This document shows, piece by piece, positions 15,689-15,956 of a stretch of 15,956 nucleotides of DNA. A program made the position numbers and the translations under genes. This DNA comes from a virus (taxonomy: Duplodnaviria; Heunggongvirae; Uroviricota; Caudoviricetes), in the IMG/VR virus record IMGVR_UViG_2778261418_000011, positions 1 through 15,956 of that record; one strand, written 5' to 3'. Below the pieces are notes generated by a model. It did not search any database. It saw only the letters and a program-made list of their open reading frames with translations, and had not been told where the DNA came from. Numbering within the stretch: position 1 is the stretch's first letter; each line of letters opens with the position of its first letter.

Positions 15689-15763
15689 TGGAGCGGGTAG
15701 CGGGAATCGAACCCGCATCATCAGCTTGGAAGGCTGAGGTAATAGCCATTATACGATACCCGC
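15689..15763 (-). tRNA. tRNA-Gly (anticodon UCC)
   Basis: Reverse complement GCGGGTATCGTATAATGGCTATTACCTCAGCCTTCCAAGCTGATGATGCGGGTTCGATTCCCGCTACCCGCTCCA folds as a cloverleaf with anticodon loop CUUCCAA and encoded CCA. Nearly identical to E. coli glyT as I recall it, with one compensated acceptor-stem pair. Confidence 0.9.
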
Positions 15764-15766
15764 ATA

Positions 15767-15842
15767 TGGTGCCGACTACCGGAATCGAACTGGTGACCTA
15801 CTGATTACAAGTCAGTTGCGCTACCTACTGAGCTAAGTCGGC
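15767..15842 (-). tRNA. tRNA-Thr (anticodon UGU)
   Basis: Reverse complement GCCGACTTAGCTCAGTAGGTAGCGCAACTGACTTGTAATCAGTAGGTCACCAGTTCGATTCCGGTAGTCGGCACCA has anticodon loop CUUGUAA. Nearly identical to E. coli thrU as I recall it, but with a U12-C23 mismatch in the D-stem. Confidence 0.85.
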
Positions 15843-15844
15843 AC

Positions 15845-15921
15845 TGGACCGCCACCGGGGACTCGAACCTCGCACACTTAACTTAAAGGGTTGACGCTCT
15901 TTCCTGATGAGCTAGTGGCGA
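15845..15921 (-). pseudogene. Degenerate tRNA-like gene (possible decayed tRNA-Arg-like member of the array)
   Basis: A 77-nt cloverleaf can be drawn (acceptor stem with U1-G72, D-arm GCUC/GAGC, T-loop UUCGAGU, encoded CCA). However the anticodon loop is CCUUUAA (C where U33 is normally invariant), and there are A-C mismatches in the anticodon and T stems. Confidence 0.4.
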
Positions 15922-15922
15922 T

Positions 15923-15956
15923 TGGTGGCCCTTGCTGGATTTGAACCAGCGACCTG
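15923..15956 (-). tRNA. tRNA 3' fragment (T-arm and acceptor end; resembles E. coli ileX-type tRNA-Ile2), truncated by the window edge
   Basis: Reverse complement ...GGTCGCTGGTTCAAATCCAGCAAGGGCCACCA gives a T-stem GCUGG/CCAGC, T-loop UUCAAAU, acceptor 3' strand and CCA. The anticodon is outside the window. Confidence 0.5.

Follow-up and report, generated by a model that had tools for sequence, protein, structure and literature searches.

In the Shiga toxin (Stx)-converting phages 933W, Sp5 and 2851, the interval between the antiterminator gene Q and the lysis genes holds the tRNA array ileZ-argN-argO, with gene names that reportedly go back to Plunkett et al. 1999; for phage 2851 the array sequences were checked in FM180578. 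Lambda-like (lambdoid) phages of Shigella and Salmonella (SfI, Sf6, ST64T, PS3 and phage 21) likewise have tRNA genes downstream of Q; those of SfI are for tRNA-Asn and tRNA-Thr(UGU), and ACA is over-represented in this phage (17.3%) when compared to the host (7.1%) (PMC3636060). Small RNAs (sRNAs) have been described from the same region of lambdoid prophages: STnc100 and its structural relative PasD lie downstream of Q, and PasA and PasC are antisense and adjoin the holin gene (PMC8550237 supplement; bioRxiv 10.64898/2026.05.13.724894), with the latter study reading tRNA matches near PasA, PasC and PasD as prophage integration hot spots. Here we analyse the right-hand end of a 15,956-nucleotide (nt) stretch of viral DNA (Caudoviricetes; IMG/VR record IMGVR_UViG_2778261418_000011, positions 1 to 15,956), the whole of which we call the window and in which four closely spaced tRNA genes precede the lysis genes. 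The array is a phage tRNA cassette of a lambdoid Escherichia coli prophage, real but ordinary, and we consider it probable that it belongs to a Q-dependent late operon, supplies minor tRNAs and is followed by a conserved module of sRNA type. Relatives are labelled L001-L209 and comprise comparison loci and contigs, including IMG/VR contigs; L004, a near-identical locus in the chromosome of a sheep E. coli, matches the end of the window at 99.5% identity.

At its right-hand end, the window has three tRNA genes that ARAGORN called as complete, each of them on the minus strand, and a fourth gene that is cut by the window end. In their order on the minus strand, these are the 3' 34 nt of an Ile2-type tRNA (15923-15956), a gene that we refer to as tRNA #2 (15845-15921; ARAGORN 'Lys', ttt), tRNA-Thr(UGU) (15767-15842; tgt) and tRNA-Gly(UCC) (15689-15763; tcc). 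With 65.6 and 64.2 bits, respectively, in the Rfam tRNA model RF00005 (gathering threshold 29 bits) and with their tcc and tgt anticodons, the Gly and Thr genes qualify as canonical tRNAs, while tRNA #2 reaches 31.9 bits and the Ile fragment gives a 5'-truncated match (15926-15956, 19.8 bits). The genes are separated by 1 nt (Ile/#2), 2 nt (#2/Thr) and 3 nt (Thr/Gly), and the CCA end is encoded in each of them. The original prediction, made from the sequence alone, had placed four tRNA genes 1-3 nt apart without giving their strand and had read the Thr and Gly anticodons correctly; it left the third tRNA, which carries UUU in an abnormal loop, unidentified. Its guess that the partial gene is of the Ile2 type was right, because the fragment is base for base identical to the 3' end of the full-length CAU tRNA gene of L004 (8959-9034) and of ileZ of the Stx2c phage 2851. 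These full-length copies combine the CAU anticodon with the acceptor stem GGCCCUU/AAGGGCC and an ileX-like body that differs from host ileX at 8 positions (68/76 identity). Ile2 tRNAs (ileX, ileY and ileZ) read AUA and depend on lysidine, for which TilS uses their C4-G69 and C5-G68 acceptor pairs.

The Gly gene of the window differs from host glyT by two compensating changes, which turn C6-G67 into U6-A67, and the Thr gene differs from host thrU by a single one, A23C at window position 15820, which breaks the U12-A23 pair of the D stem. A23C is private to the window; the Thr genes of L002-L005, L010 and L153 are identical to thrU. Since thrU and glyT both sit in the host operon thrU-tyrU-glyT-thrT-tufB, the Thr-Gly pair was probably captured from there, with loss of tyrU. 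As near-copies of host thrU and glyT, the two genes would add dosage of existing host tRNAs rather than new decoding capacity. Three canonical cassettes emerged from the IMG/VR survey, namely Ile2-Arg(UCG)-Arg(UCU), Ile2-Arg(UCU)-Thr-Gly and Ile2-'UUU'-Thr-Gly (at least 43 loci).

The comparison with the ileZ-argN-argO array of Stx phages, which had been drawn before, is borne out by an identical first tRNA and by a second tRNA on an argN-family scaffold, and judged by these sequences the two arrays share descent. They have in common the position between Q and the lysis genes, the late-gene strand, CCA-encoding genes that lie a few nt apart and an STnc100-type element behind the tRNAs. On the other hand, the third and fourth genes of the window are derived from thrU and glyT instead of argO, tRNA #2 has UUU together with C33 instead of UCG, a methylase gene lies between Q and the array, toxin genes are absent and the STnc100-like element is highly diverged.

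The gene order in L004 is Q, a 65-amino acid (aa) open reading frame (ORF), a DNA methyltransferase gene, the four tRNA genes (named Ile, Lys, Thr and Gly by the annotation pipeline PGAP), a 747-nt gap, two holin genes and an M15 endolysin gene, and the sequenced phage PhiR47_1 has this array of four tRNA genes between Q and the holin gene S. On the minus strand of the window, Pfam matches identify two holins, an endolysin, an HNH nuclease, a P27-type small terminase, a large terminase, a portal and an HK97-type capsid protein, and all late genes are uninterrupted ORFs with strong matches. The L004 layout and the Pfam-matched lysis genes of the window thus agree with the earlier placement of the array upstream of the lysis genes, with Q on its other side.

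Between Q and the holin genes, L004 has five intrinsic terminators on the sense strand. The first immediately follows Q, the second lies behind the small ORF and the other three (t1, t2 and t3) are in the spacer behind the tRNAs; those following Q are tR'-like. In the window, the terminator scan placed t1 at 15304-15324, followed by U8, and t2 and t3 at 14995-15024 and 14966-14981, just upstream of the holin ribosome-binding site (all minus strand; sites also present in L004). Overall, the window spacer contains six terminator-like sites, whereas 1.1 are expected. No match to the sigma-70 consensus was found directly upstream of the array in the L004 context, the only plus-strand matches lying inside or downstream of it. 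From this pattern we infer a late unit that depends on Q antitermination, in which the tRNAs would be made together with the late genes. The location in the Q-to-lysis interval, the late-gene strand and the terminators are those of a lambdoid late-operon cassette, as seen in the layouts of L004, PhiR47_1 and 2851.

The stretch behind tRNA-Gly (15325-15688) had been described as an empty slot, a view that our data contradict: it is conserved in ~96 contigs, structured with covariation and STnc100/PasD-like in its 3' part. It follows tRNA-Gly at 82-92% identity in ~96 prophage contigs, whatever the upstream array or the holin type, and an invariant 29-mer from it retrieves 88 IMG/VR contigs. Mean identity to relatives is ~84%, with indels of 1, 4, 5 and 13 nt, and because of these indel lengths we regard the spacer as non-coding. 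Protein coding was rejected also on the grounds that ORFs annotated in relatives lie on differing strands and in differing frames. A 118-aa ORF in the spacer of L010 had no match in a Pfam search, and the window's own spacer ORFs overlap the tRNAs or begin in a variable terminator loop.

RNAalifold analysis of 39 distinct relatives yielded 102 consensus pairs, with 98.6% of cells being standard pairs. Changes on both sides of a pair were found in 10 pairs and 44 cells, compared to 4.5 pairs and 12.1 cells in shuffled alignments (0/500 shuffles reach the observed values) and 3-8 pairs and 5-20 cells in slid controls, the structure having been derived from the same alignment of related sequences. 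The structured domains are predicted at 15476-15661 on the minus strand and consist of a three-hairpin domain (~15564-15661) and a long, nearly perfect hairpin (~15476-15559). The window copy folds with -135.3 kcal/mol (z = -5.3) on the tRNA strand as opposed to -86.6 kcal/mol (z = -2.8) on the other strand, and the structure is strand-specific because many of its pairs are G.U. Collectively, these data suggest that what lies behind the array is a structured RNA, conserved and encoded on the tRNA strand, and not a vacant cargo site. Rfam matches to 'Plastid-ycf2' (15692-15842, plus strand) are reverse complements of the tRNA genes and were discarded as artefacts, as were microRNA matches, which stem from the tRNA antisense strands and from the long hairpin.

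The distal part of this region contains an STnc100/PasD-like sRNA element at 15296-15505 (minus strand), the 3' end of which is formed by terminator t1. Rfam STnc100 (RF02076) gives full-length, weak matches of 19.1 bits in the window (15294-15493) and of 24.4 bits at the same place in L008. The window element fails the gathering threshold of 47 bits, and so does the validated sRNA PasD2 with 41.4 bits. In the alignment, the window and STnc100 share a CGGGAGGCACCCG hairpin inside a GGUG...CACC stem as well as the 3' terminator. A covariance model built from window-type elements (R1), the E-values of which are roughly calibrated, found as its best non-self matches a phage 2851 site that immediately follows stx2B (27.5 bits, E ~4e-6), scored as STnc100 by Rfam at 158.5 bits, and exactly PasD2 (15.8 bits, E ~0.005). 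Over 100 further loci, R1 gave eight matches with 25-48 bits and E-values of 6e-10 to 3e-4 in 0.9 Mb, and all eight sites are STnc100 according to Rfam (102-176 bits). The R1 matches are mostly full-length, and all of them lie on the sense strand downstream of a tRNA array. Reciprocal recognition by the two profiles, strand, synteny and the shared core hairpin therefore identify 15296-15505, at the level of sequence and predicted fold, as remotely related to STnc100/PasD, an Hfq sRNA of prophages; by the Rfam criterion, the window element is not a member of the family.

With STnc100 and PasD1-PasD2 (EcOnc13), the window element has in common the sense orientation between Q and the holin gene, a length of ~170-210 nt, the GGUG...CACC stem with its hairpins, an A/U-rich linker, an intrinsic terminator and reciprocal cross-recognition. 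It differs in its low score (19.1 vs 47 bits), in that blastn detects no similarity to PasD2, and in being fused to an upstream structured domain of 190 nt that directly follows the tRNAs. Using blastn with a word size of 7, no similarity was found between the spacer and PasA, PasD2 or the Q-to-holin interval of enteropathogenic E. coli (EPEC). A search of the spacer for AgvB, AsxR and other known Rfam sRNAs found none, with no AgvB (RF02702) match at E-values up to 10. STnc100/PasD sRNAs of EPEC and enterohaemorrhagic E. coli bind Hfq and interact with virulence-gene transcripts, and the DNA between array and lysis genes should not be read as empty, since it carries conserved sRNA-type elements related to them. 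In the loci that we examined, tRNA matches near prophage sRNAs are phage-borne Q-to-holin arrays and not integration scars.

On the opposite strand, a convergent antisense RNA unit (15103-15297, plus strand) appears to face the STnc100-like element. It comprises a possible -35 (15103-15108) and -10 element (15126-15131) with a weak consensus match, a 5' hairpin (15139-15154) followed by a U/C-rich stretch, and two plus-strand terminators (stem ~15183-15207 with a tail to 15215; stem 15251-15275 with a tail to ~15290), one of which was found by the terminator scan itself. The hairpins keep their pairing through compensatory changes between two spacer haplotypes, and nowhere is the distal spacer more invariant than in the promoter-like stretch. 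This candidate unit resembles AgvB and PasA-PasC in being small, on the opposite strand, convergent with a sense sRNA, equipped with one or two intrinsic terminators and located between the Q-side element and the holin. Its resemblance is one of position and orientation: neither at the sequence level nor with covariance models is it similar to PasA or AgvB, and it is not placed among them; its promoter match is weak, and it would be an RNA only by prediction. STnc100 on the sense strand and AgvB on the antisense strand are found back to back, with abutting 3' ends, behind ileZ-argN-argO in L060 (1432-1700) and L079 (757-1025), and the same arrangement occurs in L064, L073, L018 and L108.

Considering these features, our preferred reading of the locus, a late-operon cassette that supplies minor tRNAs, would work as follows. 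After induction, Q-modified RNA polymerase would start at the late promoter and read through the terminators, and the tRNAs would be made with the late mRNAs and freed by RNase P plus 3' trimming, which would suit the encoded CCA ends and the 1-3-nt gaps. Ile2, Thr and Gly would then raise the supply of three minor host tRNA species, each encoded by a single gene, that read AUA, ACA/ACG and GGA/GGG, and AUA, ACA and GGA are over-used by the late genes 2.5-3 fold relative to the core genes of the host. The codon comparison was made between 20 late genes of the window (4539 codons) and 41 annotated core genes of MG1655 (14490 codons). ATA accounts for 10.0% of Ile codons in late genes and 3.9% in the host sample (odds ratio ~2.7), ACA for 21.7% and 10.0% of Thr codons (odds ratio ~2.5) and GGA for 19.4% and 7.5% of Gly codons (odds ratio ~3.0), with p-values down to 2e-9. 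Such a bias would allow Ile2, Thr and Gly to act in codon supply, a role that has been suggested for phage SfI (PMC3636060). Common to the SfI-type phages and the window are Thr(UGU) right after Q and the over-representation of ACA, at the values given above; they differ in that SfI has other partner tRNAs and that an sRNA module is not described there (PMC3636060).

Several points weigh against this reading. The expectation that late genes over-use ACA, GGA and AUA was correct as far as these three codons go, 2.5-3 fold each, but other rare codons are raised equally or more (CGG 3.7x, GGG 2.5x, AGA 3.6x and AGG 7.9x), and the pattern is one of general weak codon bias. The contrast is inflated, as the host baseline of 41 genes comes from one 50-kb region and includes highly expressed genes. 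The Arg(UCU) anticodon, which would read the most over-used rare codons AGA and AGG, has been lost in this lineage, while usage of the Lys codons AAA and AAG is unchanged (odds ratio ~1); codon supply therefore cannot explain tRNA #2. Q-dependence, processing and aminoacylation of the tRNAs are, as far as this locus is concerned, what we infer. Private, stem-breaking changes are present in the Thr gene and tRNA #2 of the window and hint at relaxed selection in this prophage. Lastly, the relation to STnc100 lies below the Rfam threshold (19.1 vs 47 bits) and rests on the roughly calibrated R1 model, and the structure tested for covariation comes from the very alignment in which it was tested.

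tRNA #2, called tRNA-Lys by both ARAGORN and PGAP, aligns over its full length with the phage Arg(UCU)/argN tRNA family. Three states of the anticodon loop occur in this family, CUUCUAA (Arg UCU), CUUCGAA (Arg UCG, as in argN of Stx phages) and CCUUUAA (C33 plus UUU), which were counted 38, 25 and 53 times, respectively, among the 120 IMG/VR loci listed. The window has CCUUUAA, with C33 in place of U33 and the anticodon UUU. From its sequence, we identify tRNA #2 as a derivative of the Arg(UCU)/argN scaffold carrying C33 and U35, as opposed to a native Lys tRNA body. Of 5426 complete E. coli genomes, 798 carry the UUU allele or one close to it, with 279 exact matches; the gene that PGAP names tRNA-Lys in ~800 complete genomes derives from the Arg scaffold and has an abnormal loop. 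An A.C mismatch in the T stem is common to the sampled UUU alleles, the exception being the type found in L150, L163, L173, L175 and L189, where the CCUUUAA loop occurs together with a repaired T stem (CGAGG/CCUCG) and the G73 discriminator of the UCU alleles; the CCUUUAA loop is hence present on more than one background. In the window copy, C1U (position 15921), which L004 alone shares, gives a U1.G72 pair, and the anticodon stem contains a C.A mismatch owing to a private G-to-A change at 15878. Its 31.9 bits are a marginal pass of the Rfam threshold of 29 bits, compared to 57.8 bits for a UCU allele, and its cloverleaf energy of -13.6 kcal/mol is weaker than that of the dominant UUU allele (-22.3), of UCU alleles (-26 to -28, with -27.7 for one of them) and of host argU (-31.3). 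By these scores and energies, the window copy is probably weakly functional or non-functional. A comparison of the conservation of tRNA #2 with the divergence of its flanks proved uninformative as a test for selection, because contigs share the entire cassette without a difference, and what follows it downstream has no homology at all.

Anticodon variants were also found on a second scaffold. In L001 (SerU-LTIIb prophage), a thrU-derived scaffold (1122-1197) carries the anticodon UCU, and in seven IMG/VR contigs (L118, L206, L150, L163, L173, L175 and L189) the thrU scaffold carries UUU in the loop CUUUUAA, which is that of host tRNA-Lys. The thrU scaffold has thus undergone natural switches at anticodon position 35 to UCU or UUU. 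Saks, Sampson and Abelson (1998) reportedly engineered and selected anticodon-switch recruitment between E. coli tRNA-Arg(UCU) and tRNA-Thr(UGU) and demonstrated function. The cassette alleles likewise differ at position 35, alone or with a few further changes (thrU to UCU or UUU, Arg to UUU); they are natural and known here from sequence, whereas theirs were engineered and shown to function.

That UUU anticodons have appeared repeatedly, on an Arg and on a Thr scaffold, is the most interesting loose end of this analysis and could point to an anti-defence role. One alternative holds that the array is a counter-defence cassette, the tRNAs of which mainly replace or out-compete host tRNAs cut by anticodon nucleases such as PrrC, PARIS AriB, colicins and retron effectors, with tRNA #2 acting as a tRNA-Lys(UUU) substitute on an Arg body whose altered anticodon stem-loop escapes the nuclease. 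Published work has shown that tRNA-Lys variants carried by phages protect them against PrrC and PARIS and that it is the anticodon stem-loop which AriB recognises (PMC11555353, PMC11464382, PMC10264068). In line with this alternative, UUU arose on two scaffolds (Arg in 53 of the 120 IMG/VR loci listed; thrU in 7 contigs, with the host tRNA-Lys loop), the allele is common (798/5426 genomes, 279 exact) and also occurs on the repaired T-stem background, and the flat use of AAA/AAG in late genes leaves a Lys tRNA unexplained by codon supply, host tRNA-Lys being encoded by several gene copies. Against it, tRNA #2 has C33 where U33 is nearly universal, and U73 as its discriminator, making charging by LysRS and function on the ribosome uncertain; the window copy has an additional mismatch in the anticodon stem; further variants (UCU on thrU, a UAC call at the Gly position and an AAA call on a decayed copy) fit neutral drift in redundant genes; and the Thr and Gly tRNAs, being essentially identical to those of the host, would be cut like them. 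We therefore regard this explanation as unlikely, and give an equally small chance to the broader idea that temperate lambdoid phages of E. coli have repeatedly made tRNA-Lys(UUU) look-alikes that are poor substrates for PrrC and AriB, so that the cassette doubles as an anti-defence device. If it were true, the conversions would have run via C35U plus U33C on the Arg(UCU)/argN body and via G35U on the thrU body, the foreign anticodon stems or C33 would hinder nucleases specific for tRNA-Lys (PrrC, PARIS AriB), and ~15% of complete E. coli genomes would carry an anti-defence cassette, of which the window has a slightly damaged copy.

Quite unlikely, in our view, is that the array is a decaying relic, passively carried in a recombining mosaic module, with its private mutations marking the onset of pseudogenisation. 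Such decay would account for Thr A23C and the G-to-A change in tRNA #2, which are private to the window, for C1U, which L004 alone shares, and for L009, where tRNA #2 and Thr are further decayed and not called by PGAP. The joints at the boundaries of the cassette, of which L153 and those IMG/VR loci whose downstream DNA is unrelated are examples, would also fit. What speaks against a relic is that Gly keeps its compensated pair swap, that Ile and Gly are intact, that the late genes of the window are uninterrupted and have strong Pfam matches, and that dozens of contigs whose flanks differ have the cassette with 100% conservation. Regarding the joints themselves, L153 has a spacer 99.7% identical to that of the window and shares its holin, but has only Thr-Gly upstream, the DNA past Thr being unrelated; going by these alignments, the cassette edges are recombination joints at tRNA boundaries.

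As to cargo, phage 2851 has stx2AB 93 nt behind ileZ-argN-argO and 75 nt ahead of STnc100, in agreement with the earlier statement that toxin genes lie downstream of the comparable array of Stx phages. In L060 and L079, ileZ-argN-argO is followed by ~110 nt and then STnc100, with no toxin genes, and by their sequence these loci look like Stx-type sites that are truly empty. The position at which Stx is inserted between the tRNA array and STnc100 is thereby exactly defined, and empty-site relatives are available for studying the acquisition of toxin genes. The window stretch that matches the stx position is 15506-15688 only (~183 nt), which is itself conserved and structured. With megablast, the window had no match to phage 2851 beyond the first two tRNAs, and a more sensitive blastn search extended to position 15777, inside the third tRNA gene.

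Of 122 loci in which a holin could be recognised, 37 have 290 nt between tRNA-Gly and the holin gene, 11 have 460-470 nt and ~63 have 670-780 nt, the window having 747 nt; nine loci are expanded. Where the holin is of the type associated with P27, the standard spacer of 730-780 nt is found in 23/41 loci and cargo in 5/41. Cargo junctions map to window position 15033/15034 (TerB plus a small ORF in the loci of four relatives), to 14982-15002 (two unknown ORFs in L006) and to ~15474 (a 194-aa ORF in L209), and elsewhere in the interval relatives carry an antisense gene for a DUF1440 membrane protein and insertion sequence (IS) elements. The interval between tRNA-Gly and the holin is thus a real variable region, and the original prediction was right in that relatives carry cargo between array and holin; the insertions sit at the three junctions named, and none was found in the interior of 15506-15688, so that the junctions are not where it had set the slot. 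The LT-IIb prophage, the best match of the spacer in the phage database, was rejected as a cargo example, its toxin genes lying after the endolysin gene and not behind the tRNAs.

It is accordingly very unlikely that 15325-15688 is, taken literally, a vacant moron (cargo-gene) insertion site. Such a site would be in keeping with the lack of a conserved ORF within these bounds and with stx lying downstream of the homologous array in Stx phages, yet the interval is conserved, structured and partly STnc100-like, the observed cargo junctions are outside it or at its edge, and the 730-780-nt spacer is the majority state (23/41 P27-holin loci). Finally, the chance that the array is the host thrU-tyrU-glyT-thrT-tufB operon instead of phage DNA, which had been named as a possible refutation, is practically nil: 5421 of 5426 E. 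coli genomes match the query because the window Thr and Gly genes are only 1 and 2 nt away from thrU and glyT, whereas the flanks are Q plus the methylase on one side and holin, endolysin and terminase genes on the other, tyrU, thrT and tufB are missing, and 3 nt separate Thr from Gly where the host has tyrU plus more than 100 nt between thrU and glyT.

The kind of array described here is already known, and its composition is already contained in deposited phage genomes, where it is annotated and not discussed; the value of the analysis lies mainly in correcting annotation and interpretation, the locus being otherwise a routine example of late-operon tRNA genes. In the LT-IIb prophage L001, the segments 1117-2460 and 3026-4176 form a tandem duplication of a tRNA-tRNA-spacer-holin module, the first copy of which has the Thr-to-UCU switch and a truncated second holin gene. 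The lysis cassette of the window (13904-14941, minus strand) consists of the holin gene at 14549-14941 (Phage_holin_8), the second holin gene at 14284-14559 (Phage_holin_3_7) and the M15 endolysin gene at 13904-14287 (Peptidase_M15_4). Downstream of the endolysin gene, a 60-aa ORF (13474-13656, minus strand) had no Pfam match and contains a lipobox-like LLVGC motif, and may encode an o-spanin or a lipoprotein.

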